From an uncultured Bacilli bacterium (GTDB taxonomy: Bacteria > Bacillota_I > Bacilli_A > RF39 > UBA660): DNA of 64,000 nucleotides. The notes beneath the pieces are model-generated. The model worked only from the letters and a program-made list of their open reading frames with translations, ran no database searches and was not told the DNA's origin. Both the position numbers and the translations under genes were made by a program. Of the stretch, positions 1 to 21,551 are shown one piece after another. The stretch covers positions 36,332 through 100,331 of the forward strand of contig CALVSW010000002.1 in NCBI GenBank assembly GCA_944359625.1. Reading direction: 5' to 3'. How positions within the stretch are numbered: the first letter of the stretch is position 1; each line of letters starts with the position of its first letter.

Positions 1-29
1 AAAGTGATACAATTTATTATCATAAATTA

Positions 30-731
30 ATGAGTTTATTTGATTTTATAAATGAATATATTTTCAATATATGGGAAGATAGAGATACTTTTGTTGAGCT
101 AGAAGAATTTTTTACTCACATTGGTTTAACTTCTAAAGAACATGTGTCTCAAGAATCTTTTCTTAATTTTTTAGAATTAATGATAAATTTAATTGATGTT
201 TTAAATGAAAATTATTCAAATGGGATTTTTTGCTCAATAAAAGTTAAAAATATTTTTGAACATAATATACCAATTATACTTGAAAAACTAAATTATAAAA
301 TAGCAGATATGAAAAGTAGAAAAATAATTATAAAAAGAGATGCTGATGTTGATTCTGTATTAGAAATTGTTCCGGAGAGTATATCTAATTTATTACTTAG
401 TTACAATGATATAAGATGTAATAATATAGAATCAAAGAAAAGTATTTTAAAAAATATAGATTTGTATTTAGAAAGTGATTCAAATAAAAAAATCTTTAAA
501 TCTCTGGATAGTAAATTGTGGGATTCAATTGCTACAATTGTTAATAAAATGGGGGTAAATCATCCAATACAAGAAGAACCATTTTTATCTTTAAAACATG
601 ATGAGATTATCAAGTGGTATGATAAATGCTTTAAGATGATGATTCATTTAATTAGAATGAAAGAGATTAAAAATTATAAAAATGAAAGAGATATTCTTGT
701 TAAACATGATGGAGGTATAAAAAATGATTAA
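30..731 (+). CDS. Hypothetical protein, first gene of the R-M operon
   Basis: 233-aa ORF with no motif I recognise. Its 3' end overlaps the dpnM-like start by 8 nt. An extended -10-like TGATACAAT lies at 5-13. Confidence 0.55.
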   Translation: MSLFDFINEYIFNIWEDRDTFVELEEFFTHIGLTSKEHVSQESFLNFLELMINLIDVLNENYSNGIFCSIKVKNIFEHNIPIILEKLNYKIADMKSRKIIIKRDADVDSVLEIVPESISNLLLSYNDIRCNNIESKKSILKNIDLYLESDSNKKIFKSLDSKLWDSIATIVNKMGVNHPIQEEPFLSLKHDEIIKWYDKCFKMMIHLIRMKEIKNYKNERDILVKHDGGIKND

Positions 732-1575
732 AGGTAAACCATTTGTAAAATGGGCTGGTGGAAAGAGACAAATTATAGACAAATTAAAAAAATATGTTCC
801 TAATGAATTTAATAAATATTATGAACCATTTGTAGGTGGAGGTGCTTTATTATTTGAATTATCTCCTAAAAATGCTATTATTAATGATAGCAATAAAGAA
901 TTAATGAATGTTTATAAATGTATAAAAGATGATAATAAGTTTGAAGCTATGTGTAAAGAATTAGATCATCATGAAACTATGCATTCTGAAGAATATTATT
1001 ATAAAATTAGAAATTTAGATAGAGATAAAAAGAAATTTAATAAGATAGCTGATTATAAGAGGGCTGCTAGAACAATTTATCTTAATAAAGCTTGCTTTAA
1101 TGGATTATATAGAGTAAATAGTAAAAATGAATTTAATGTTCCATTTGGAAAGAAAACTAAAGTCAATACTTATGAGGGACAAAATTTAGGAATTGTATAT
1201 AGCTTTTTAAATTACAATAATATTACATTGCTATCAGTTGATTTTGAAGAAGCTGTAAAAGATGCTAAAAGAGGAGACTTTATATACTTTGATCCACCAT
1301 ATGATTCTGATACAACTACTTTTAATAGTTATACTGAAGATGGTTTTGATAAAGATGAACAAAAAAGGCTTGCAAATGTATTTAAAGAATTGGATAAAAG
1401 AGGTTGTTATGTAATGTTATCAAATCATAATACAACTTTAGTTAATGAATTATATAAAGACTATAATATTCATGTAATTGAAGCTAAGAGGAGTATTAAT
1501 GCTAATGGTAAAAAAAGAGGCAAAGTAAAAGAAGTTATAATAACAAATTATGAAAATAAAAAAGAAATTGAATAA
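724..1575 (+). CDS. dpnM: Dam-family N6-adenine DNA methyltransferase (GATC), DpnM-like
   Basis: FVKWAGGKRQ, EPFVGGGALLFEL, NGLYRVNSKNEFNVPFG and FIYFDPPY motifs. Collinear along its length with pneumococcal DpnM as I recall it. Confidence 0.9.
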   Translation: MIKGKPFVKWAGGKRQIIDKLKKYVPNEFNKYYEPFVGGGALLFELSPKNAIINDSNKELMNVYKCIKDDNKFEAMCKELDHHETMHSEEYYYKIRNLDRDKKKFNKIADYKRAARTIYLNKACFNGLYRVNSKNEFNVPFGKKTKVNTYEGQNLGIVYSFLNYNNITLLSVDFEEAVKDAKRGDFIYFDPPYDSDTTTFNSYTEDGFDKDEQKRLANVFKELDKRGCYVMLSNHNTTLVNELYKDYNIHVIEAKRSINANGKKRGKVKEVIITNYENKKEIE

Positions 1576-1597
1576 TAATTTTGATAGGAGGTATTGA

Positions 1598-2383
1598 TTG
1601 AATAAATTAAAGTATTATTATGATAATAACAATTTTAAACTTATACTAGGTGATTCATTAAAAATACTAAAAAATATTGAACCTAAAAGTATTGATATGA
1701 TATTTGCAGATCCTCCTTACTTTCTATCAGGAGATGGAATTTCTTGTAGTGGTGGTAAAATGGTATCAGTTAATAAAGGGGCTTGGGATAAATCTATTAG
1801 TATTGAAGAAAAACATAAATTTAATAGAAAATGGATTGGATTATGTTATCAAATTTTAAAAGATAATGGTACTATTTGGATAAGTGGAACCATGCATAAT
1901 ATTTATTCAATAGGTATGGCATTAGAACAAGAAGGATTTAAAATTATTAATAATATTACTTGGAGAAAACTTAATCCACCTCCAAATATTAGTTGTAGAG
2001 CTTTTGTTCATTCGACAGAAACGATATTATGGGCAAAGAAGGATATAAAAAAGGTTAAATATAAGTTTAACTATGAATTAATGAAAAAATTAAATAATGG
2101 TAAACAAATGAAGGATGTTTGGGAAACTTCTTTAACTAAACAAAGTGAAAAAAAGTGTGGTAAACATCCAACACAAAAACCTATTGAATTATTAGAAAAA
2201 ATTATTTTGGGATCAACTGATGAAGGTGATTTAATTTTAGACCCATTTAATGGTAGTGGTACTACGGGTATAGTGGCAAGTAAATTAAATAGAAAATATA
2301 TTGGGATTGAAAAGGAAAAAGAGTATTTAGATTTGACTATAAGAAGAAAGGAAGATTATGATGAAAATAAGCAAAGGAAATAA
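1598..2383 (+). CDS. dpnA: Second N6-adenine DNA methyltransferase, DpnA-like
   Basis: TTG start 7 nt after AGGAGG. IFADPPYFLS, NITWRKLNPPPN, KHPTQKP and LDPFNGSGTTG motifs; close resemblance to DpnA/LlaDCHI-B. Confidence 0.9.
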   Translation: MNKLKYYYDNNNFKLILGDSLKILKNIEPKSIDMIFADPPYFLSGDGISCSGGKMVSVNKGAWDKSISIEEKHKFNRKWIGLCYQILKDNGTIWISGTMHNIYSIGMALEQEGFKIINNITWRKLNPPPNISCRAFVHSTETILWAKKDIKKVKYKFNYELMKKLNNGKQMKDVWETSLTKQSEKKCGKHPTQKPIELLEKIILGSTDEGDLILDPFNGSGTTGIVASKLNRKYIGIEKEKEYLDLTIRRKEDYDENKQRK

Positions 2384-2903
2384 AACTTGTAAAATAAAAG
2401 GTAACAGAATAACTTCAATAATTGACATAGATTTTAATGACAAATATAAAATATATATTTTTCAGGGAAATTTAAGCGAAAATGACATTATAATAAAATA
2501 TTCAGAAAATGGAAAAAGAATTAGAACACCAAAGCATATACATTGGACAGTAGATTTGCTATTGAAATTACAGGCTGATAATATTTTAACTAAGTCTTAT
2601 ATTAATGAAATCATAAAAGAATGGCAATCTTGTCAGTCTCTTAAAAATAATGATGAATGTACATTAACAACATTAGTTAATAATTATGTAGAGATTACTG
2701 ATGTTGAAAAGTATCAAAAATTAACTAAGTATGGTGAGTATGATATTGAATTTTTAACTGTATTAATGACTTTGCTTATGACCCAAGAAAAAACTAATCG
2801 TAAAGATGCTTATATGTTTGGTAACATTTTAGTATCTTTATTAAAAGACGATTTAGATATTTATTCAATAATGTCTGTTGCTGGTTTTGGAGGTAAACAT
2901 TAA
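2358..2903 (+). CDS. Hypothetical protein inserted between the methylase and endonuclease genes
   Basis: 181-aa ORF. Its start overlaps the dpnA-like 3' end and its TAA stop shares one nucleotide with the ATG of the endonuclease gene. No recognisable motif. Confidence 0.6.
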   Translation: MMKISKGNKTCKIKGNRITSIIDIDFNDKYKIYIFQGNLSENDIIIKYSENGKRIRTPKHIHWTVDLLLKLQADNILTKSYINEIIKEWQSCQSLKNNDECTLTTLVNNYVEITDVEKYQKLTKYGEYDIEFLTVLMTLLMTQEKTNRKDAYMFGNILVSLLKDDLDIYSIMSVAGFGGKH

Positions 2904-3760
2904 TGAATAGAAATTTTAATGAATGGTTCAGTAATTTTAAAACTAGTATATCAGATTATACTTATTATGTTGATTTTAAAAAAATATATAAAAATGTTGA
3001 TAAAATAAAAATAGAACTAAATATTTTAAACTCATTAATAGGTAGTAAAAATATTGAGGAAGAATTTCAAAATATATTAATTAAATATCCTAATACTTTA
3101 GATTGTATTCCGTTATTATTAGCAGTTAGATCGAGAGAAATATTTGTTAAAGATGAAATAAATGAATATTTATTTAAATTTGATAAAATGGTCTATTCTA
3201 TAAATGATTATATTAAATTTATGCAAAAAAGTGGCTTATTTGATTTATTACAAAATCATATTATAAATAATTTATATGATTATGTTTTAGGTATTGAAGT
3301 TGGATTAGATTCGAACGGAAGAAAAAATCGTGGTGGCCATTTAATGGAAAACTTAGTTGAGGATTATATAAAAAGGGCTGGTTATATAAAAGATAAAAAT
3401 TATTATAAGGAAATTTATACAAAAGATATTAAAGCCAAATGGAATATAGATTTAATATCAATATCTGGAAAAAAACAAGCAAGTAAACGATGGGATTATG
3501 TTATAAAAACTGATAAACAATTGTATGTTATTGAAACTAATTTTTATGCTAGTAAAGGTTCTAAATTAAATGAAACTGCTAGAAGTTATGAATTGATTGC
3601 TCAAAAAGTCAAACAAATAACCGGAGTAACATTTATTTGGATAACTGATGGTACAGGCTGGAATTATGCTAAAAATAATTTAGAAGAAACATTTAATGAA
3701 TTAGAAACTCTATATAATATTAATGATTTAGAAAATGGTGTTTTAAATAATTTAAATTAG
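2903..3760 (+). CDS. dpnB: DpnII/MboI-family type II restriction endonuclease (GATC)
   Basis: Near-collinear similarity to DpnII as recalled: NFNEWFS, LNSLIGSKNIEEEF, SGLFDLLQNH, GRKNRGG, NFYASKGSKLNETARSY, LYNINDLE. Confidence 0.9.
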   Translation: MNRNFNEWFSNFKTSISDYTYYVDFKKIYKNVDKIKIELNILNSLIGSKNIEEEFQNILIKYPNTLDCIPLLLAVRSREIFVKDEINEYLFKFDKMVYSINDYIKFMQKSGLFDLLQNHIINNLYDYVLGIEVGLDSNGRKNRGGHLMENLVEDYIKRAGYIKDKNYYKEIYTKDIKAKWNIDLISISGKKQASKRWDYVIKTDKQLYVIETNFYASKGSKLNETARSYELIAQKVKQITGVTFIWITDGTGWNYAKNNLEETFNELETLYNINDLENGVLNNLN

Positions 3761-3785
3761 ACTTATGTATAGTCTTTTTTATTTT
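3759..3785 (+). terminator. Weak rho-independent terminator after the R-M operon
   Basis: AGACT / AGTCT 5-bp stem followed by a T6 run immediately after the dpnB-like stop. Confidence 0.5.
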
Positions 3786-3929
3786 ATCTTAACATAAATT
3801 TAACTGTGATATTATGAATAAATATAAGATAAATATTATATATAATGATACGGATTTAAATATAAACGATATATTAATTAAAACTTTAAAAACAGAATTA
3901 TCTAAAATAATTATTAAGGATTATAACAA

Positions 3930-5483
3930 ATGAATTTTTTTAATGTAGGTTTATATATTAGACTTTCCCGTGAAGATGATGATAAAAATGAGATGAGTGA
4001 AAGTATTACAAATCAAAAAAGTTTACTAACTCAATATGTTGAAGAAAACAATTTAAAACTTGTTGATATTTATATTGATGATGGTTATAGCGGTACTAAT
4101 TTTGATAGACCAGCATTTAAAAGAATGATAGATGATATTTTAAAAGGTAAAATTAATATGGTTATTACTAAAGATATGTCACGTTTAGGAAGAGATTATA
4201 TTGGTACTGGAGAATTAATTGAAAAGTTTTTTCCAATTCATAAAGTTAGATATATAGCAGTTACAGATAATATAGATACTTATTTAGATAATTCTAATAA
4301 TGATATTGCACCATTTAAAGCGATAATGAATGATATGTATGCTAAAGATATTTCTAAAAAAATTAAATCAAGTTTAAGAGCGAAACAAAAAGAAGGAAAA
4401 TGGGTTGGAGGAAGAACTCCTTTTGGTTATATAAAAGATCCTCATAATAAAAATAAATTAATAATATTTGAAGAACAAGCCGTTATTGTTAGAAGAATAT
4501 TTAATATGTGTTTAGAGGGATTATCTTTTTATAAAATAGCTTTAAAATTAACAAATGAGAAGGTAAAAACACCAGCTGAATATTATAGTTTCAAGTGGAA
4601 AAATAGTTATCATCTTAATTATGGATTATGGCACGCTAAAACAATTAGAGATATTTTAACTAATAGAATGTATATTGGTGATTTAGTTCAAAATAAAAGA
4701 AATAAAGTTAATTATAAAGTAAAAAAGATTATTAAAAATAATCCTGAAAATTATATTGTTGTTGAAAATACACACGAACCTATTATAGAAAAAGGAATAT
4801 TTTATGAAGTTCAAAAAAGAATTCCTAAAAATGTAGGAAGGAATGAAAAAAAAGAAATAAATTTATTAGATGGTTTATTATATTGTGGTGATTGTGGACA
4901 CAGAATGTCAATTACATCTAGAAGAAAAAAAGATAACAGATGTTATACTATTTGTAATTATTATCGAACTTATATGCAAAATCATGTATGTACAACTCAT
5001 TCCAATAATTATGATATATTAGAAAAAGTCATTTTAAATAGATTAAAAGAAATATGTTTAAATTACATTGATAAGAAAAAAATAAAAGAAATAATATTAA
5101 AAAATTTATATAATAATGATAAACAAAGTATAAAAAAAGAAATATCAGTTCTTGAAATAGAAATCAATTATATCAATAATAATTTAGATAATATCTATCT
5201 AGATAAATTAAATAAAGTGATTTCTGAAGAACAATTTAATAGAGTTAAAGTTAAGTTAGAAAATGAATTAAAGATTAAACAAGATAGATATATAGAAATA
5301 TCTAGTAATATTAATGAAAAAAATAATAGTGAAACGAATCATAAAAAAATAGAGAAATTTATTGATAAGTATTTGTATTTGAAAAAGCCTAGTAGAGAAT
5401 TAATTGTTAATTTAGTTGATAGAATAGAAATATTTGAAGATAAAAAAATAAATATTAAAGTTAGTTTTAATAAATTAAGTTAA
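3930..5483 (+). CDS. Large serine recombinase (resolvase/invertase N-domain, recombinase domain, zinc ribbon, coiled coil)
   Basis: N-terminal LYIRLSREDD (catalytic Ser context), YIDDGYSGTNFDRPAF, VITKDMSRLGRDY. Cys cluster LLYCGDCGH...CNYY. 517 aa, typical of SpoIVCA/phage-type large serine recombinases. Confidence 0.9.
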   Translation: MNFFNVGLYIRLSREDDDKNEMSESITNQKSLLTQYVEENNLKLVDIYIDDGYSGTNFDRPAFKRMIDDILKGKINMVITKDMSRLGRDYIGTGELIEKFFPIHKVRYIAVTDNIDTYLDNSNNDIAPFKAIMNDMYAKDISKKIKSSLRAKQKEGKWVGGRTPFGYIKDPHNKNKLIIFEEQAVIVRRIFNMCLEGLSFYKIALKLTNEKVKTPAEYYSFKWKNSYHLNYGLWHAKTIRDILTNRMYIGDLVQNKRNKVNYKVKKIIKNNPENYIVVENTHEPIIEKGIFYEVQKRIPKNVGRNEKKEINLLDGLLYCGDCGHRMSITSRRKKDNRCYTICNYYRTYMQNHVCTTHSNNYDILEKVILNRLKEICLNYIDKKKIKEIILKNLYNNDKQSIKKEISVLEIEINYINNNLDNIYLDKLNKVISEEQFNRVKVKLENELKIKQDRYIEISSNINEKNNSETNHKKIEKFIDKYLYLKKPSRELIVNLVDRIEIFEDKKINIKVSFNKLS

Positions 5484-5517
5484 AATATGGTATAATTAAG
5501 CCTCAAGAGGAGGTTTT

Positions 5518-7104
5518 ATGAGTATTTTAACAAGTGCTAGTAGTTCTTCTGTTAGTAGAGGATATGATTACTATAAAGAACATAAAGTTCATGATATAAA
5601 TCAGATAAATGATAATGAATTTGAAGGTTATGTAGATGGTAGTTTAAAAAAACCTTATTATGTAAAGATTAATATAAATCATCCAAGAAAATCACAATGC
5701 GATTGTCCTCACGCTAATGGAAATATAACATGTAAGCATATGGTAGCGTTATTTTTTGAATTGTTTCCAGATGAAGCAGAAGATTATAATTCATGGTTAA
5801 CCAGTGATTTTGATGATGAATATGATGAAGATGATTATGACGATTATTATGACGATGAATATGATGGTTACAATTATTTAAAAAATGATACAAATTTTGA
5901 AAAGTCATTATTTTTTGATATGGTATTAGATAAATATATTAAATCTTTATCAAGGGAAGAATTACAAAAATTATTAAAAAAAGAGTTATTAAAAAATGAA
6001 GAGGATACTTACTATAATTATTTAAAGGATGTTTATAATAAATTTTTAAATAATAGTGATGAATCATTAGTATATTTAGAAAAACTAAATAAAAAAGTTA
6101 ATGAATTTACTAATATACATTATTATGATTATAATTATAAAAAGTTTGATGATATATTATTAACACCGTATGATAAAAGAATGATTGGTAAAATATATGA
6201 AGATAATATATATACAAAACAGGTAGATAACATATTATTAGTTCCTAAACTGGCAGTTTATTCTAAATTTGATTGGATTGCAACCTTTTATCGAAATGAA
6301 AAAAGTTCTAAAAAAATTAATGATTTTATCGATGAATTACAAAATTATTTTAATAGTTTAAAACACTATAGTATTAAAAGTACGATTCCAAAATCTAATA
6401 TATTAATAAATATTTTTTTGTTAAAAAAATATCCAATAGAGCAATTAGCTTTATCTCTTCTTAATAATGCTAAATATTTAGAATATATTGAATATGTTAT
6501 TAAACATACAAAAGATTATAAATTATTATATAAAGAGTTTATAAAAATGATTGAGAAAAATTATTTTAAAAATAAAATATATATACCTAAAGTTTTAGCT
6601 ATATTTTATTATTTAAGTAATTATGATGATAAAAAATTAGAATTTAATTATAATTTGTATAATTTTCTTTGCCTTGGTAATATTGAATATTTAAGGTATT
6701 TGTCTTTTGATTTAACTAAAGAACAAATAATAAAAATTATAGAAGATAAAACAAAAGATATAAATTTACTTATAAAATTATATAATTATTTTAATGAAGA
6801 CAAAAAATTATATAACTTAATTTTGAATAGTAATAGAAAGTATATGTTTTTACAATATGTTGAGTTATTAAAAAATAATTATAGTAAAGAATTGTATGAT
6901 TATTTTTATAATGAATTTTATTTAACTTTAAATATTGATAAAAAAAGAGAAATATATAACAAAGCTGCAGAATATCTTGGAGCTATATTGAAATTAAAAG
7001 ATGGTGAAAAATTAGTTAATAACATTATTGAAGAGTTAAAGAAATCTGATTTTAAAAAATGTAGTGCATTATTTGAAGAAATTGATAATGTAGTTAAGAT
7101 TTAG
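5518..7104 (+). CDS. SWIM zinc-finger domain protein with an acidic/Tyr-rich linker and a long helical C-terminal region
   Basis: CDCPHANGNITCKHMVALF matches CxCxnCxH (SWIM). Low-complexity DFDDEYDEDDYDDYYDDEYDGYNY. Strong RBS AGAGGAGG upstream. Confidence 0.8.
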   Translation: MSILTSASSSSVSRGYDYYKEHKVHDINQINDNEFEGYVDGSLKKPYYVKININHPRKSQCDCPHANGNITCKHMVALFFELFPDEAEDYNSWLTSDFDDEYDEDDYDDYYDDEYDGYNYLKNDTNFEKSLFFDMVLDKYIKSLSREELQKLLKKELLKNEEDTYYNYLKDVYNKFLNNSDESLVYLEKLNKKVNEFTNIHYYDYNYKKFDDILLTPYDKRMIGKIYEDNIYTKQVDNILLVPKLAVYSKFDWIATFYRNEKSSKKINDFIDELQNYFNSLKHYSIKSTIPKSNILINIFLLKKYPIEQLALSLLNNAKYLEYIEYVIKHTKDYKLLYKEFIKMIEKNYFKNKIYIPKVLAIFYYLSNYDDKKLEFNYNLYNFLCLGNIEYLRYLSFDLTKEQIIKIIEDKTKDINLLIKLYNYFNEDKKLYNLILNSNRKYMFLQYVELLKNNYSKELYDYFYNEFYLTLNIDKKREIYNKAAEYLGAILKLKDGEKLVNNIIEELKKSDFKKCSALFEEIDNVVKI

Positions 7105-7251
7105 TCTATCATAAGTACGCAAGGACATGTAATCCCAGTAAATACTAGGATAATTAATCATCATATTATACATCATACATATGTACCTATGTTTACTTGC
7201 TGTGAAGAAAATGATTGTACTAATGTTTATGACAATAAGTGCTGTTTATAG
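7105..7251 (+). pseudogene. Start-less 3' fragment of a His/Cys-rich CotD-like spore-coat gene
   Basis: Open frame SIISTQGHVIPVNTRIINHHIIHHTYVPMFTCCEENDCTNVYDNKCCL*. It has no plausible start or RBS. The pattern NHxxxHHxYxP...CC resembles B. subtilis CotD (PF11122) as I recall it. It has its own terminator. Confidence 0.45.
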
Positions 7252-7256
7252 TTAAT

Positions 7257-7286
7257 AAAAAGCAAATAGAAAATATTTGCTTTTTA
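7257..7286 (+). terminator. Rho-independent terminator of the CotD-like fragment
   Basis: GCAAATA-GAAAA-TATTTGC stem-loop extended by A/T pairs and followed by TTTTT. Confidence 0.75.
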
Positions 7287-7324
7287 TGTGCTAATATAAT
7301 AATATCTTTTTATAGGCGATTTTT

Positions 7325-7705
7325 ATGAAAGTATTAACTATTAAAGAACCTTGGGCAAGTTTAATAATTGAAGGTTATAAAAAATACGAGTTTAGAAGTT
7401 GGAAAACTAATTATCGTGGCAAGATATTAATTCATGCTGGAATGACTATCGAAAAAGATATGTTAAAAAGATTTAAAGATTATAAATTCACTTGTAATCC
7501 TGGTTATATTATTGGCGAAGCAACATTAGTTGATTGTATTTTAGTAGATGAAAAATTTAATGAAGAGTTAAAAAAAATAGATCCAGTTGTTTATGGCAGA
7601 AATAATCATACATGTGCATATGCTTGGAAACTAGAAAATGTAATAAAATATAATCATTTAGTACCAGTTAAAGGAAAATTAGGATTATGGAATTATGAAA
7701 AGTAA
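7325..7705 (+). CDS. ASCH domain protein
   Basis: 126 aa. N-terminal LTIKEPWASLIIEGYKKYEFRSW is typical of the ASCH/PUA-like fold. Confidence 0.75.
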   Translation: MKVLTIKEPWASLIIEGYKKYEFRSWKTNYRGKILIHAGMTIEKDMLKRFKDYKFTCNPGYIIGEATLVDCILVDEKFNEELKKIDPVVYGRNNHTCAYAWKLENVIKYNHLVPVKGKLGLWNYEK

Positions 7706-7723
7706 AAAAAGTAGGTGATATTT

Positions 7724-8839
7724 ATGGATATACTTGATATATTTTATAATCATGTAATAAAAGAAGCTTTAACTGGTAGAGTAGATTGTTATTTTTATTA
7801 TAATATTGTATTTAACGTAATAATAGAAGATAAGATGCTAAGTAGTAATTTAGAAGAAGTCTATGAAGATGTTATAATCCCGACTTTAAATATCCAAAAT
7901 AAAGAAGAATTTGATAGATTATTAATTATATATGTTAATAAATGTTTAGAATTTTATGATAATAGTAATTTTCATGAAGAAATATTAAATGGTACTTTAT
8001 ATGATGAAGAAAATAAAATATGTAAAGAAAAAATGATTTTAACTTTATTATTTGCTAATGCTTCTTTAAATGATTTTGCTAATCCAATTTTTTATTTAAA
8101 TAGAAGAATAAATTTTTTAGATAGTTTAACTTGTAATTATGATTTAGGTTATTCAGATATTTTAAATTGTAATTTAGCTATATCAGTTACTAAAGATAAA
8201 ATAAATAATGAAACACCATATCAGTTTGTTGTAACTTTAATATCTTTAGATGGTAGTACTTTTGAACTTCCAAGAATAAAATTTGCTGTAAGTGAAAATA
8301 AAGCATATATTTATGCTATTCAAAATTATAATAAAACAACTTCTTCTTTTTTTAAAAAAACTAATCGAAAATTTTATAAAGTAAATGAAGGATTTAATAA
8401 AGATGAAGATAATAATGAAATATATGGTGATGGTAATTTAAATGATGTTTCTTCTAGTTTTTTACTTGTTGCTAATATGTTAATTACTTACTTGATTACC
8501 CAAAAAGTTAATGAATTTTATGTATGTCCTTTTTTAATAGAAAGATGGAATTCTAAAGTAATTGCAAATCATATTAAAGAAAAATATAAGAATATTGATT
8601 ATAATGAATTATATAAGTTCCAACTTAATATTCAATCTAACTTAACAGAAAAGTTTTTAAGAACTTTTTTAAGATTAAATTATCATTGTGATAATTTAGA
8701 AATAAAAGAATATCCAATGGAACAAGATTCTAATTTGCATATAGTTAGTAATAACGAAATTTATTCAAATAATCTACTATTAAATGAAGTATCTTATTTA
8801 ATAATTAAAAGATTAAAAACTAATAATTTAAAAAAATAA
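7724..8839 (+). CDS. Hypothetical protein
   Basis: Long ORF. I prefer the ATG at 7724 after GTAGGTGA over the GTG at 7715 given in the ORF track. No recognised motif. Confidence 0.55.
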   Translation: MDILDIFYNHVIKEALTGRVDCYFYYNIVFNVIIEDKMLSSNLEEVYEDVIIPTLNIQNKEEFDRLLIIYVNKCLEFYDNSNFHEEILNGTLYDEENKICKEKMILTLLFANASLNDFANPIFYLNRRINFLDSLTCNYDLGYSDILNCNLAISVTKDKINNETPYQFVVTLISLDGSTFELPRIKFAVSENKAYIYAIQNYNKTTSSFFKKTNRKFYKVNEGFNKDEDNNEIYGDGNLNDVSSSFLLVANMLITYLITQKVNEFYVCPFLIERWNSKVIANHIKEKYKNIDYNELYKFQLNIQSNLTEKFLRTFLRLNYHCDNLEIKEYPMEQDSNLHIVSNNEIYSNNLLLNEVSYLIIKRLKTNNLKK

Positions 8840-8899
8840 TGGTAATAACTGGCTAAGTAAAAAAATAATAATTACCTATAATAATATTAGGTGATCAAT

Positions 8900-9880
8900 A
8901 TGAAAAAATATCAATATATCATCTTTTTCTTAAGTATACTTCTTTTTCCTACTTTCGTATTTGCTTATTCTGATAAAGTAATACTAGGTGGTCAAAATGT
9001 TGGTATAGAAATAAATACTAAAGGAGTATTAGTAGCTGGTTTTTATAAAGTTAATGGTGTTTATAATGCTAGTAGATTACTAATTGGTGATTATATTACT
9101 AAAGTAAATGATAAAGAAGTAAATACTATTAATGAATTAGTTAAAGAAATAGAAAATAATGTTATCGATAATAAAATAACTATTAGTTATCGTCGTGACA
9201 ATGTAGATTATACTACTATCCTTGATTTAGAATATAAAGATGGCGTACATAAAACAGGTTTATATGTTAAAGATACATTATTAGGTAATGGTACGATTAC
9301 TTATATAGATCCTGAAAGTAAGATATATGGCGCTTTAGGACATAACGTAGTTGAATCTATTACAAATGATAGAATAGAATTAAGAACAGGTAATATTTTT
9401 AAAAGTAGTATAAGTAGTATAACTAAGAGTAGTGATGGTAATCCCGGAAGTATCAATACTAAATTTTATCGTAATTATATTTATGGAAATATTAAAAGTA
9501 ATAGTTTAGTAGGTATATATGGTAATTATGTAGAAGAAATACCTAGTGATACTTTAATTGAAATAGCTAAAATTGATGAAGTAAATTTAGGTAAAGCTAA
9601 AATATACACTACTTTAGCTAATAATGAAATAAAATCATATGATATAAATATATTAAAAATAGATAAAAGTAGTGATATAAAAAATTTCTATTTTGAAGTA
9701 ATAGATAAAGAATTATTAAATAAATCAGGAGGAATAGTCCAGGGTATGAGTGGTTCGCCAATTGTACAAAATAATAAATTAATTGGAGCAGTTACTCATG
9801 TTACTATAGATAATGTAAAAACAGGTTATGGTGTTAGTATTATAACAATGTTAGAGACTGGTGATAAAGAAATAAACTAG
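8900..9880 (+). CDS. spoIVB: SpoIVB peptidase (S55), sporulation signalling protease
   Basis: Signal anchor, PDZ-like region (LIGDYITKVNDKEV), GTITYIDPESKIYGALGH and catalytic-Ser context GGIVQGMSGSPIV. ATG at 8900 preferred. Confidence 0.85.
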   Translation: MKKYQYIIFFLSILLFPTFVFAYSDKVILGGQNVGIEINTKGVLVAGFYKVNGVYNASRLLIGDYITKVNDKEVNTINELVKEIENNVIDNKITISYRRDNVDYTTILDLEYKDGVHKTGLYVKDTLLGNGTITYIDPESKIYGALGHNVVESITNDRIELRTGNIFKSSISSITKSSDGNPGSINTKFYRNYIYGNIKSNSLVGIYGNYVEEIPSDTLIEIAKIDEVNLGKAKIYTTLANNEIKSYDINILKIDKSSDIKNFYFEVIDKELLNKSGGIVQGMSGSPIVQNNKLIGAVTHVTIDNVKTGYGVSIITMLETGDKEIN

Positions 9881-9932
9881 TCTTTTTTTATGTAACAAGT
9901 TAAATATATATAAAAAATATTATAGGGATAGT

Positions 9933-10196
9933 ATGGAAAATTTTTTAACTTGGGATATCTTAACTACATATGCTAGTTTTATATCAATTGTTTTTATGAT
10001 AGTAGAATTTATAAAAGATATTAAATTTATAAATAAAATTCCTACAAAGTATCTAAGTTTTACAATAGCATTTATTTTAATAATTATAACTAACTTCGTT
10101 ATGAATACTTTTAAATATATCGATTTAGTATTATATTTCTTATCATCAATATCTATAAGTTTAGGTACGATTGGATTAAGTAAATTTGATAAATAA
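9933..10196 (+). CDS. Small membrane protein (holin-like topology)
   Basis: 87 aa with two or three hydrophobic segments; AGGGA RBS upstream. Function not established. Confidence 0.45.
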   Translation: MENFLTWDILTTYASFISIVFMIVEFIKDIKFINKIPTKYLSFTIAFILIIITNFVMNTFKYIDLVLYFLSSISISLGTIGLSKFDK

Positions 10197-10234
10197 TTAT
10201 TTGCCACCGGATATATGAATCGCTTAACTAATAA

Positions 10235-10432
10235 TACCCAAATGGCTATTATTGGTCCATGTCGCCGTCCTTTTTCGACGTTGGCACCTCTTCTGCTTAT
10301 GGGGTCCATCAGGACGCGACTGGCCTTGCTTACGGATACCTCTGGGTGACCGGCGGCCTTGGCTTGCGTCCGGTAATCAATCTGCAATCGATTGCTCCTA
10401 AAATAATTAATTTAATTAGCAGATTTCGTTGA
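10235..10432 (+). pseudogene. Start-less 3' fragment of a C-type-lectin-fold (DUF1566/FGE-like) variable-protein gene; candidate decayed DGR variable region
   Basis: Open frame YPNGYYWSMSPSFFDVGTSSAYGVHQDATGLAYGYLWVTGGLGLRPVINLQSIAPKIINLISRFR*. The GC-rich core 10253-10375 has only 13 A in 123 nt on the + strand. A 12-nt palindrome GCAATCGATTGC lies at 10384-10395. Confidence 0.5.
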
Positions 10433-10474
10433 CATATAAGTAAAATTAATATTTAATAGTGATTAGGAGTTTTT

Positions 10475-11188
10475 ATGGAAGAAGTAATATATAAAAATAC
10501 ATTAGAATTAATAAAAAAAGAAAAAGAAAGATATAATCGATTATTAAAGTATTTAGAAAGTGCTTATTGTGCTAAAAGTATAGATGAAAATTTAAGATAT
10601 TTAATAAATTTAAAAGATGGGGAATTTACTTCTAGAATAAATTTAAGTAAAACAGAGTTTATTTTAAAATCATATCAACTAGATAAAGACGTATTATTGT
10701 ATGATTACTTAGCTAAATTTTTAGCAAGTAATGAGTTTTATCGTGCTTTAGTTTTAACTAGTAAAAATGTTACAGTTAATAATAGTAATTTTAGTTTATT
10801 AGATAATAAAGTAGATATTAGCTTAAAGCCATGTATTATTAAAGAAATGTTAACAGAAGGGTTTATTAATTCATTATTTGCTGATAATAACTGGACTGGT
10901 AGCCCTTTTATTGTGTATGGAAGTAATAATTTTGAAACTGGTGGTTTTAACACTTTAAATAGTTATGTTGAATATCATGCTCAATCAGGAAAATGTATTT
11001 GTAGAATGAATTTTGATTATAATACTCAATGTATAATTATGTCTGAAGATGGTAATGCGTATAATAAAGTTATAGAAGATTGGATTAATTTAAATTTAGA
11101 AAGTACAGATGATCCAACGATGTTAGTTAAAATGGCAGGGTATTATAATTCAGTAGAAAAATTAAAAAGTTTAGTTCGTAAATTATAG
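10475..11188 (+). CDS. Hypothetical protein
   Basis: 237-aa ORF with RBS AGGAG. TTGACA-17-TTTAAT promoter-like element at 10429-10457. Confidence 0.6.
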   Translation: MEEVIYKNTLELIKKEKERYNRLLKYLESAYCAKSIDENLRYLINLKDGEFTSRINLSKTEFILKSYQLDKDVLLYDYLAKFLASNEFYRALVLTSKNVTVNNSNFSLLDNKVDISLKPCIIKEMLTEGFINSLFADNNWTGSPFIVYGSNNFETGGFNTLNSYVEYHAQSGKCICRMNFDYNTQCIIMSEDGNAYNKVIEDWINLNLESTDDPTMLVKMAGYYNSVEKLKSLVRKL

Positions 11189-11243
11189 TTGTAGATTATT
11201 CAACTAATAAATGATATAATCTACTAGTAAAAAGGAGTAGAAA

Positions 11244-11867
11244 ATGCAAGAGTTTATTTTAAGTTTTATGGAACAATTTGGATATTTAGGAGTATTTTTA
11301 TTAATTACTATTGAAAATGTATTTCCACCAATACCATCTGAGGTTATATTATTATTTGGTGGCTTTATGACTACTTATACTAAATTAAATATTGCAATTA
11401 TGGCTATATCAGCTACATTAGGCTCTGTTCTTGGCGCTATTATTTTATATTATATTGGTAAAATATTTAATAAAGAACGTTTAAAAAAGATTATATCTGG
11501 TAAATTAGGGAAGATATTAAGACTTAAAAATTCGGATATTGATGCAGCAGATCGTTGGTTTGATACTCGTGGTCAAAAAACAGTATTCTTATGTCGTTTT
11601 GTTCCGATAGTGCGTAGTTTAATTAGTATTCCAGCAGGAATGAGTGAAATGCCTTTAGGTAAATTTTTACTTTATACAACAGCTGGATCATTAATTTGGA
11701 ATGTCGTTTTAATTATTATTGGGTCAATCGTAGGTAATAATTGGTCAAGTATTTTAAATGTTTTTGATACATACCAAAATATTGTTATTGTAATTCTTGG
11801 GGTTATCTTTATTGGCTTTGTATTTTGGTTCTATAAAATTAAGAGTAAAAATAAAAGTAAAAATTAA
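11244..11867 (+). CDS. DedA family membrane protein
   Basis: GYLGVFLLITIENVFPPIPSEVIL and FVPIVRSLISIPAGM motifs. Extended -10 TGATATAAT at 11212-11220. Confidence 0.85.
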   Translation: MQEFILSFMEQFGYLGVFLLITIENVFPPIPSEVILLFGGFMTTYTKLNIAIMAISATLGSVLGAIILYYIGKIFNKERLKKIISGKLGKILRLKNSDIDAADRWFDTRGQKTVFLCRFVPIVRSLISIPAGMSEMPLGKFLLYTTAGSLIWNVVLIIIGSIVGNNWSSILNVFDTYQNIVIVILGVIFIGFVFWFYKIKSKNKSKN

Positions 11868-11898
11868 TAGTTCTCGATAATTTGGAGAACTATTTTTA
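11868..11898. terminator. Bidirectional terminator between convergent genes
   Basis: TAGTTCTC-GATAATTTG-GAGAACTA hairpin, A-rich on the 5' side and T-rich on the 3' side. Confidence 0.75.
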
Positions 11899-12438
11899 TT
11901 CTAAAGATAATTTTCTTTTTTTATAATTATTACTATTTTTAATAATTTCCTTTAAAGATGTTATATCGATATTAGATGTTCCTTCTACTTTTATAATATT
12001 TATATCTTTATCATCTTCATAATATATTATAAGATCTTGATAATAATATTGCTTAGCATTTAATAATTTTATATTATGAATTAAATTTATTATTAAAGCA
12101 TAAAAGCTATTATTAAAATTTAAATAACTTTCTAATTCTTTTTTAGACATTTTCGTAATTACATTATTTTCTTTTAATAATTTAATAATAAAATCATCCG
12201 GATAATAATAATCTTTATATTCTATAAGAGAATACATAATATTTAGTAAAGGAATAAAACATAGTAAAAATGATTTATCAACTATTCCATAATTATCTTT
12301 ATATTTTTTAAAACTTCTAAAATCTATTTTATAACCTTGATTACTAATATCTTTTATTTCTTTTAAAAATTTACTATTATCGATAGATATACTTGTTAAA
12401 ATAGAGCTAAACCAGATAATAAAAAAATTTGTATCCAT
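11896..12438 (-). CDS. Hypothetical protein
   Basis: 180-aa ORF with GGGGGG RBS-like sequence upstream on the minus strand. No recognised motif. Confidence 0.55.
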   Translation of the reverse strand: MDTNFFIIWFSSILTSISIDNSKFLKEIKDISNQGYKIDFRSFKKYKDNYGIVDKSFLLCFIPLLNIMYSLIEYKDYYYPDDFIIKLLKENNVITKMSKKELESYLNFNNSFYALIINLIHNIKLLNAKQYYYQDLIIYYEDDKDINIIKVEGTSNIDITSLKEIIKNSNNYKKRKLSLE

Positions 12439-20678: not shown

Positions 20679-21551
20679 ATGAATAAAAAGAAAGGAAATC
20701 CTGTTTTAAAAATAATATTAAATGTTATAACTTGGACAATATTTGCCTTGTTAGTATTAATAGCGTTATTTTTATTATATTATGCTATTGCAGCTCAAAT
20801 ATATGCTAAAAAAGGAGAAAAATATGAACCTGCTTTTTCATTATATACAATAATATCTGGTTCAATGAAACCGAATATTAATGTTTATGATGTAGTAGTA
20901 GATGGCAAAGTAAGTAATCCGGAAGATATAAAAGTAGGTGATATAATAACTTTTACTTCTTCTTCATCATTAACATATGGTGTTACTATTACCCATCGTG
21001 TTATTGCTATTGATAATAGTAATGGTGTATATCGATATCGAACTCAAGGAGATAATAATTTAGTACCAGATGATGCTTATGTAGAGTTTGGTAATATTTT
21101 GGGTAAAGTATTGTTTAAAATACCCCAACTAGGTCGTGTTCAGTTTTTACTATTAAAAGCTGGTAGTTGGTTATTTGTTATATTAATCCCTTCTTTAGGT
21201 ATCGTTATTTATGACATATTAAAAGTATTAAAATTAGCTGGTACTAAGAAAAAAATAGATAATACTTTAAATAATAAGAAAGATGATACAATAAGTAAAG
21301 AAAAACAAGAAAAATTAAAAGAAGATATTATTGAAAGATTAAAACAAAAAGAAAATATTAAACCTATTAAAAAGATTGATCTTAATAAAGTATTAAGTAA
21401 GATAGAAGAATTAGATAAAAAAGATAATATTAATGAAAATATTAGTTTACCAGAAATAAAAAAAGAAGATAATCAATTACCTAAAGTTAAACCTAAGAAA
21501 GTAACTAAAACCAGAAAAAAACGTAAGAAAAAATCTACTAAAAATAAATAA
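20679..21551 (+). CDS. sipW: Signal peptidase I, SipW (archaeal/ER) type, with Lys-rich C-terminal tail
   Basis: ISGSMKPNINVYDVVV and ITHRV motifs, a second TM, and a long KKxK-rich tail. Confidence 0.75.
   Translation: MNKKKGNPVLKIILNVITWTIFALLVLIALFLLYYAIAAQIYAKKGEKYEPAFSLYTIISGSMKPNINVYDVVVDGKVSNPEDIKVGDIITFTSSSSLTYGVTITHRVIAIDNSNGVYRYRTQGDNNLVPDDAYVEFGNILGKVLFKIPQLGRVQFLLLKAGSWLFVILIPSLGIVIYDILKVLKLAGTKKKIDNTLNNKKDDTISKEKQEKLKEDIIERLKQKENIKPIKKIDLNKVLSKIEELDKKDNINENISLPEIKKEDNQLPKVKPKKVTKTRKKRKKKSTKNK

Follow-up and report, generated by a model that had tools for sequence, protein, structure and literature searches.

A non-phage island with restriction-modification genes in a split CotD-like gene of an uncultured gut Bacilli bacterium, and its probable developmental excision

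Does a block of restriction-modification (R-M) genes that abuts a start-less, His- and Cys-rich reading frame interrupt a sporulation gene, and would such a gene be restored during development? The question is raised by the left end of a 64,000-nucleotide stretch of DNA, hereafter the window, from an uncultured Bacilli bacterium (contig CALVSW010000002.1 of assembly GCA_944359625.1, positions 36,332 to 100,331 of the forward strand), which has a G+C content of 24.1%. An earlier sequence-only reading had proposed that an element with a large serine recombinase splits a cotD-like spore-coat gene here. From our analysis it is probable that window positions 1-7125 are most of a non-phage integrative island which lies inside a CotD-like gene and is excised developmentally. 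The structural part of the proposal, the splitting of the gene, is borne out by whole islands and by base-precise empty sites in contigs of the same species.

Three features describe the junction between the island and the gene.

7104..7150, plus strand: attR, consisting of the island arm GTCTATCATAAGTACGCAAGGA at 7104-7125, the crossover dinucleotide CA at 7126-7127 and the host arm TGTAATCCCAGTAAATACTAGGA.
7126..7251, plus strand: 3' part of the split CotD-like gene, 41 codons plus stop, 95% identical to the intact protein P0094.
7255..7287, plus strand: intrinsic terminator of the CotD-like gene, a hairpin of -13.9 kcal/mol (z = -5.5) followed by a U-run.

The element had been read as ending at 7104, but positions 7104-7125 are the island's own att arm, which is also found in L067 and L068, and the crossover lies at the CA behind it. 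The start-less frame at 7105-7251 does translate into the 48 residues reported earlier, SIISTQGHVIPVNTRIINHHIIHHTYVPMFTCCEENDCTNVYDNKCCL*, of which only the last 41 are derived from the host. Homology to the host begins at about 7124-7125 in DNA alignments with intact homologues and at exactly 7125 when judged from the empty-site contigs. The insertion point falls between the codons for V-Q/P and H of the host gene. The terminator had been recognised correctly; a simple terminator scan, which demands three G-C pairs, missed this hairpin, and it is also kept in L006 and L067.

The left junction lies outside the window, and a tblastn search found nothing of the 5' half inside it. This junction was therefore read from contigs L067, which was reached via homologues of the recombinase, and L080-L084, which were reached via the 5' half, and which we assign to the species of the window because of 96-99.7% nucleotide (nt) identity (L067, L080 and L081). 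The 5' half was indeed found beside the other end of the element, as had been predicted: in L067, L080 and L081 it is a fragment of 53 amino acids (aa), MFRNCC…HREFHHEVQ|HA*. Window position 1 corresponds to L067 5626 and to L081 10499, and the attL crossover lies about 345 nt further left. In all cases the 5' fragment runs into a stop 1-5 codons past the crossover (QE*, QV*, HA*). The order of the whole island in these contigs is ffh, the 53-aa 5' half, attL, a terminator and promoter, orf1 (268 aa), a D12-class methyltransferase, a 110-aa open reading frame (ORF) that the window does not have, an N6_N4 methyltransferase, a 181-aa ORF, DpnII, a small ORF, the recombinase, a SWIM protein, attR and the 3' half. 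The island measures about 7.9 kb in L067 and about 7.47 kb in the strain of the window, where positions 1-7125 make up its right-hand ~95%.

Joining the two halves of L067 in silico at the crossover, a check suggested by the sequence-only reading, gives an intact protein of 92 aa, which is identical to the naturally occurring protein P0242; the 3' part in the window, joined to the same-species 5' half, gives this protein too. P0242 is intact on 13 contigs of the same species, whose identity to both the window and L067 is 97-99%. The empty-site contigs L070-L079 match L067 up to position 5284 and again from 13184, with an overlap of 5 nt (ACATG). Relatives without the element carry the intact gene in the form predicted by the join, and the truncated fragment was never seen without the island. 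The join likewise restores the ORF in L012 (island of 4,674 bp) and in L016 (8,120 bp), and the joined proteins of L016 and L068 occur as natural proteins. The insertion thus lies inside a coding sequence of which both halves are kept, and the precise join restores the reading frame, as in an intervening element.

The recombination sites are in line with those of large serine recombinases, which are imperfect inverted repeats of about 40-50 bp with a non-palindromic core of 2 bp. The window-type attP, GTCTATCATAAATACGCAAGGA-CA-TGCTTGAGTATTTATGCTAGAC, has 46 bp, with 19 of the 22 arm positions in inverted repeat around the central CA, and a second type of att arm, GTCTATCAAAAAAGGGCAATCA-CA-AGAGTGATAATTTATGATAGAC, is found in L012, L016 and others. 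attB and attP overlap by only 3-5 nt (ACA or ACATG). The junctions predicted to arise from excision are an attB that contains CATGAAGTACAACATGTAATCCCAGTAAAT and an attP of the sequence GTCTATCATAAATACGCAAGGACATGCTTGAGTATTTATGCTAGAC.

Two further observations concern the ends of the islands. At all attL loci (e.g. L012:1625-1645 and L081:10185-10205) a conserved box, (A/G)AGATAAA(A)TAAGTA(T/C), is present about 10-20 nt inside the right att arm of the island, independent of the cargo; a role as an accessory site or as a promoter is conceivable. The left end of the island, a hairpin terminator followed by the extended -10 promoter CTTTTTATGTGGTATAATA, resembles the host sequence after the terminator of the CotD-like gene, and the corresponding stretches (window 7279-7300, L067:13330-13352 and L081:10233-10252) are nearly identical. 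The island therefore mimics, or once captured, the 3' end of the host gene.

The similarity of the host gene to cotD, as proposed before, is consistent but stays below threshold. Searching with the fragment alone gave four proteins, three of them full-length (75-84 aa), and a profile made from full-length homologues recovered 2,075 relatives of 80-120 aa in gut metagenomes and metagenome-assembled genomes of 'Bacilli'. The closest intact homologue is P0094 (99 aa), which is 95% identical over residues 8-47 of the fragment. The family is rich in Cys and His, with the core PPIYECPxERxCHRxIxHEVPHIxPxNTRIINHHIYxHTYxPxYTCCEEN. For 94 of 120 members the CotD family PF11122 is the top Pfam family, with all scores below the gathering threshold of 22 bits and a best E value of 2.9e-4; intact homologues compared singly with PF11122 reach 10-16 bits, and the window fragment has no match in Pfam. 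An hhalign comparison of the family alignment with a CotD sequence, which was verified at 58 bits against PF11122, gave an E value of 7.9e-5 and a probability of 61% over only 21 columns (VPHIxPxxTxxxNHxxxxH). Since the similarity to CotD is sub-threshold, we call the gene CotD-like and not a member of PF11122; its product would be a coat protein.

The promoter of the gene is conserved. The motif CATAnnnTA is found in about 50 of the 52 host-gene loci, about 10 nt before the ribosome-binding site (RBS), which corresponds to about -30 relative to the ATG. CCTAtAC often precedes it at a spacing of 16 nt, and the surroundings are otherwise unalignable. As a control, only one of 60 other ORFs of the window has CATAnnnTA at that position. 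The sigma-K consensus is reportedly AC-N16/17-CATAnnnTA in the work of Helmann and Moran and of Eichenberger et al. in 2004, and since the motif matches it we regard the promoter as of sigma-K type, which probably makes the split gene a late mother-cell gene. Split copies of the gene retain this promoter.

The recombinase and the sequences directly upstream of it are as follows.

3930..5483, plus strand: large serine recombinase of 517 aa, with Resolvase (PF00239), Recombinase (PF07508) and Zn_ribbon_recom (PF13408) domains, all above threshold.
3814..3933, plus strand: small ORF of 39 aa, MNKYKINIIYNDTDLNINDILIKTLKTELSKIIIKDYNK, whose stop overlaps the recombinase start.
3793..3802, plus strand: CATA-type -10-like box CATAAATTTA, 11 nt upstream of the small ORF.

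With three domains and about 500 aa the protein has the make-up of the large serine recombinase family; it matches the integrase family phrog_95 with 367 bits, and its N-terminal domain matches TnpX (2mhc). NCBIfam holds no model specific for SpoIVCA, and the best named matches there (CcrB, CcrC and XisF) are far below their cut-offs. A look-up of the exact sequences of the recombinase and of the window's orf1 found no identical record. Homologues of the recombinase are 55-91% identical and most of them stand at the same gene junction, with copies of the same species at about 90%. Phage and virome records contain more distant relatives, at 30-44% identity. The gene lies near one end of the element; in L001 and L016 its stop codon is about 25 nt from the crossover.

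The five other elements examined, and relatives from IMG/VR, likewise have an ORF directly 5' of the recombinase; it has 56-62 aa, and its N-terminus is conserved (M-x-KYKIN-x-I…INDILIxxLxKEL). Scans of NCBIfam and PHROG gave no homologue of known function for the small ORF. Because this lack of detectable homology resembles that of the 42-aa GirX and of other directionality factors, we infer by analogy that the small ORF is a candidate recombination directionality factor (PMC5595907). Upstream of it a conserved motif, aCTAAAA-N11/12-CATAAnTTTA-RBS, can be recognised, and the box CATA(A/G)nnTTTA is kept in L012, L016, L043, L066, L068, L096 and L097. A conserved C in CATA is a hallmark of the -10 elements of sigma-E and sigma-K, and the box at 3793-3802 may be a mother-cell promoter element of this type.

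A scan of IMG/VR with the recombinase found pairs of small ORF and recombinase at 55-70% identity, with no detectable CotD halves beside them. In one of these contigs (L096) a sequence resembling an att arm stands beside DNA that is not CotD. Several other IMG/VR contigs (L101, L102, L105, L107 and L109-L111) carry tandem arrays of three to five large serine recombinase genes, each 25-40% identical to that of the window.

The window itself shows only a start-less fragment, and the small ORF is shorter in its lineage (39 aa) than elsewhere (56-62 aa). Such features would fit an immobile relic in which an old insertion has left the gene fragment behind as a pseudogene. We consider this very unlikely, as the recombinase is of full length with its three domains and is about 90% identical to the same-species copies, the palindromes of the att arms are intact, the species also has precise empty sites and the fragment is under strong purifying selection, with a dN/dS of 0.03 between the 3' halves of the window and of L012, both from split species.

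How widespread the islands are was estimated by an unbiased scan with the N-terminal half of the host protein. In GTDB, 50 species-representative genomes carry the gene (locus L061 was left out as a false match), and in nine of the 50 it is split at the same codon (L011, L012, L016, L023, L027, L033, L035, L043 and L051). The sibling islands measure 4-8 kb and differ in their content. That of L012 carries an ASCH-transglutaminase fusion, Fic, the small ORF, the recombinase and MazEF; that of L016 carries ABC-F, an arginase-like gene, two radical-SAM/SPASM genes, the small ORF and the recombinase. In L068, where the recombinase is 89% identical to that of the window, an island of about 4 kb with methyl-directed DpnI as cargo splits a divergent paralogue of 81 aa at the equivalent codon; this paralogue, too, has a CATAnnnTA promoter. 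For P0187, the most abundant recombinase cluster, at least ten contigs of different samples have it in the same host gene. There, in the species of L112, 61 contigs carry the split 5' half and the collection lacks the exact join, which makes the island nearly fixed in this species. The islands are a widespread, previously undescribed family in uncultured gut Bacilli.

The identities of the recombinases do not follow those of their hosts. Between the window and L012 the recombinases are 72% identical and the host flanks about 85% in nt identity, and the recombinases of L016 and L001 are 82.5% identical despite distant hosts. Vertical co-divergence of island and host was ruled out by this incongruence. 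The cargo also differs within a single species (L089 versus L087). The islands must therefore be passed on horizontally in addition to being inherited. Since the insertions may be recent, the low dN/dS value is supportive of a functional split gene and not decisive.

Fic-domain genes deserve a separate remark. They lie on the host side just downstream of the intact or split gene at L070:2563-3375, L067:13345-14127 and L006:1804-2061, and inside the island in other species (L012:2576-3367 and L112:7094-7840); a Fic module thus seems to shuttle across the att boundary.

The cargo of the island in the window consists of the following genes.

1..731, plus strand: orf1, the first cargo gene; C-terminal ~243 codons of a 268-aa protein, with the start upstream of the window.
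724..1575, plus strand: D12-class (Dam/DpnM-like) N6-adenine DNA methyltransferase (PF02086, 217 bits; PADLOC MTase_II, 327 bits).
1598..2383, plus strand: N6_N4 (DpnA-like) DNA methyltransferase (PF01555, 217 bits; PADLOC MTase_II, 342 bits).
2358..2903, plus strand: ORF of 181 aa within the R-M operon, also present in L067, L080 and L081.
2903..3760, plus strand: DpnII-family type II restriction endonuclease (PF04556, 355 bits; PADLOC REase_II, 339 bits).
5518..7104, plus strand: SWIM-zinc-finger protein of 528 aa (PF04434, borderline with 19.8 bits against a cut-off of 19.6).

Family scans thus confirm the block of R-M operon, 517-aa recombinase and SWIM protein that had been described before. 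PF02086, PF01555 and PF04556 follow each other in one operon in the order of a DpnII-type R-M system, with the 181-aa ORF, which has no match in Pfam, NCBIfam, PADLOC or PHROG, interposed; the system is predicted to be specific for GATC. DpnII-type restriction cuts unmethylated GATC, and the siblings show complementary restriction, with methyl-directed DpnI at L068:8531-9325 and the DpnII-type operon at window 724-3760. The 110-aa ORF of the same-species islands lies between both methyltransferase genes (L067:7200-7569), and window 1505-1576 aligns to either side of this difference. The SWIM protein, which has a weak match to PADLOC PDC-S62 (E 1.8e-11), is cargo between the recombinase and the att arm and does not occur in L001 and L016, where the recombinase adjoins the junction.

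The frame of orf1 is open from window position 3, and the first listed ORF (30-731) is only its C-terminal part; full-length homologues follow directly after attL in L023, L063, L067 and L081. No match to orf1 was found in Pfam, NCBIfam, PADLOC or PHROG. A metagenome scan with orf1 missed the strain of the window but gave one additional attL (L063), and also homologues outside CotD-like loci, in the unrelated R-M contexts of L064 and L065; at L065:9680-10000 the homologue stands directly 3' of what appears, by reading, to be the C-terminus of a type I specificity subunit. This would suggest that orf1 is an accessory gene associated with R-M systems.

Given a recombinase of the phage integrase family phrog_95 with distant relatives in phage and virome records, the element might be a defective prophage of the classical skin type. 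This is hardly credible, since neither the 7.5 kb island nor its 4-8 kb siblings contain genes for capsid, tail, lysis or replication, and all of them are far smaller than any prophage. Prophage origin was ruled out: apart from one family without known function, the non-recombinase cargo has no match in PHROG, and the Pfam and PADLOC scans show no phage genes.

A weightier contender is an ordinary integrative island for defence or addiction. Its attB would be the most conserved motif of a dispensable CotD-like gene, the carriers would do without the coat protein, and excision would be rare, unregulated and for transfer only. This reading is possible and has a fair number of observations in its favour, and we nevertheless think it improbable on balance. 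The presence/absence polymorphism within species, the incongruence of recombinase phylogeny and hosts, and the turnover of cargo within one species are all expected of such an island; the cargo, mainly R-M, toxin-antitoxin, Fic and NERD, is typical of selfish islands; CotD-like paralogues exist in some genomes, with two copies in L015 for instance; and split and rejoined forms never occur together in one listed sample. It is more difficult to reconcile with the absence of decay in the split copies examined, as the nine split representatives, and likewise the nearly fixed species of L112, keep intact halves and an intact sigma-K-type promoter, or with the dN/dS value given above. The target, moreover, would belong to the late mother-cell gene class, where excision makes insertions tolerable. 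The recombinase-borne elements in mother-cell sporulation genes that have been studied experimentally, skin, SPbeta, gin and yin, all excise during sporulation or in a growth-phase-dependent manner (PMC5595907, PMC5025042, PMC10747680).

What argues for developmental excision of the present island is the nature of the target gene, the conserved small ORF and the CATA-type -10 box upstream of the recombinase operon, and on these grounds we hold a developmental excision, restricted to the mother cell, to be rather likely. Several points weigh against this. The island is polymorphic in the species of the window (about 11 split and 13 intact contigs), it moves horizontally, and recent insertion could in part explain why the halves are intact. 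The relationship to CotD stays below the Pfam threshold. The CATA box of the small ORF matches the sigma-E/K consensus only partly, and in the window the -35 part of the motif is replaced by the terminator of the R-M operon. A directionality factor that is co-transcribed with the integrase would be a drawback when the island has to integrate into a new host. A scan of IMG/VR for attP circles gave only two chance matches, in contigs of jumbo phages, none of the listed samples holds both the split and the rejoined form, and the window itself does not contain the left junction.

The island can be described as a left-end module of att arm, terminator and promoter, an exchangeable cargo, and a conserved right-end module of small ORF and recombinase. 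In the model of developmental excision, the small ORF and the recombinase would be expressed jointly from the CATA-type promoter in the sporulating mother cell, and the recombinase, with the small ORF as directionality factor, would recombine attL and attR at the central CA. The circle would be released and the coat-type gene would be intact in time for its sigma-K-driven expression, while the chromosome of the forespore would retain the island.

It is tempting to speculate further that, in this uncultured lineage of the gut, small and exchangeable islands for defence and addiction have turned into built-in developmental locks of a spore-coat gene, a reading which we put forward only tentatively and think doubtful as yet. 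The locks would carry DpnII or DpnI restriction, MazEF, Fic, NERD or radical-SAM modules as cargo; in species where the split allele is essentially fixed, coat assembly would depend on excision by the recombinase and the small ORF, expressed from a mother-cell promoter; and the 46-bp att system would hop between species and CotD-like paralogues by way of the most conserved motif of the family. If true, no other known intervening elements of sporulation genes would be as small, as widespread and as modular, and anti-phage cargo would be linked to the split between germ line and soma in the sporangium. Restriction and toxin cargo may persist in the germ line of the spore-former, with the coat gene restored in the disposable mother cell.

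That the host is a spore-former had been concluded from two genes further along the window, and both were found again.

8891-9880: SpoIVB (TIGR02860, E 4e-79).
20679-21551: SipW-type signal peptidase.

In the same-species contigs a gene of the CotZ family and spoVE/ftsW lie just upstream. Between an ASCH gene and spoIVB the window has an ORF of 374 aa without family match (7715-8839), which is 99.7% identical in L067 and is missing from this place in the related species L012. A patch of about 230 nt (10200-10430), located between spoIVB and the gene that follows, is richer in G+C than its surroundings (34% versus about 22%); an inverted copy, 87% identical, is present at L080:4422-4608 and another copy in L012 (7915-8093). 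The patch may be a structured RNA or a repeat element, with folding z-scores of only -1.7 and -2.1, and an Rfam scan of window 1-12000, the patch included, gave no match.

The analysis extends the short list of sporulation genes that are split by recombinase-borne elements (sigK, spsM, spoVFB, gerE and yabG), and it indicates that intervening elements of such genes can form a minimal, multi-species family of 4-8 kb and need not be oddities of single strains. The attB/attP pair, the recombinase and the candidate directionality factor together define a recombination system that is directly testable. For annotation it is of use as well, since the gene halves would otherwise be labelled pseudogenes or overlooked.

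Several known systems can be compared with the islands. The heterocysts of Anabaena, which are terminally differentiated cells, excise the fdxN element developmentally by means of the large serine recombinase XisF. The present case differs in phylum, cell type and target gene, and the window recombinase scores 93 bits against the XisF model of NCBIfam, far below its cut-off of 375 bits. In Streptococcus pneumoniae DpnI and DpnII are alternative cassettes, fixed chromosomal alleles that are exchanged by transformation. The window has the gene order of pneumococcal DpnII (dpnM-like, dpnA-like, dpnB-like) and its sibling L068 the complementary DpnI, whereas the cassettes here ride on recombinase-borne islands inside coat-type genes.

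The skin elements in sigK (SpoIVCA/Skr in B. subtilis, CD1231/CD1234 in C. difficile; PMC5025042) likewise split a sporulation gene, have the recombinase near one end and are missing from some strains; they are removed by precise recombination between attL and attR that restores the ORF, as would be the case here. However, skin is a defective prophage of 14-48 kb in the gene of a sigma factor, whereas the target here is a gene with a sigma-K-type promoter further down the cascade, so that excision would control a single coat component and not the entire late programme. Recombinase-borne as well are SPbeta in spsM (SprA/SprB; PMC4191935, PMC5499854) and, in yabG of C. botulinum, yin (PMC10747680). 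Their targets lie in the sigma-K regulon and serve maturation of the spore surface, with the directionality factor under mother-cell control, which the present islands would have in common with them. Both are phages or prophages, tens of kb in size; phage genes are absent from the present islands, which form a large family in many species with one conserved protein motif as the target.

The closest system is gin in gerE of Bacillus cereus ATCC 10987, with its recombinase GirC and the 42-aa directionality factor GirX (PMC5595907). The sequence-only reading had supposed that R-M cargo would be something out of the ordinary on such an element, which does not hold, as gin already carries an R-M system (PMC5595907). 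Common to both are the non-phage nature, this kind of cargo, the polymorphism among strains and a very small target, which in gin is the late mother-cell gene gerE of 225 bp and here probably a late mother-cell gene too. Excision of gin takes a large serine recombinase and a tiny, motif-less directionality factor, and the present islands have candidate counterparts of both; here the ORF of the candidate factor directly precedes the recombinase gene and is probably co-transcribed with it, and excision is predicted. gin has 28.6 kb and three recombinases, compared with 4-8 kb and one recombinase here, and its target is a regulator, whereas here it is a CotD-like structural gene in uncultured 24%-GC gut Bacilli. 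In the literature library searched we found no paper that combines cotD with a serine recombinase in sporulation. Compared with these systems, what is new is the target gene, the host lineage, the minimal size and the large modular family, while R-M cargo is already known from gin.

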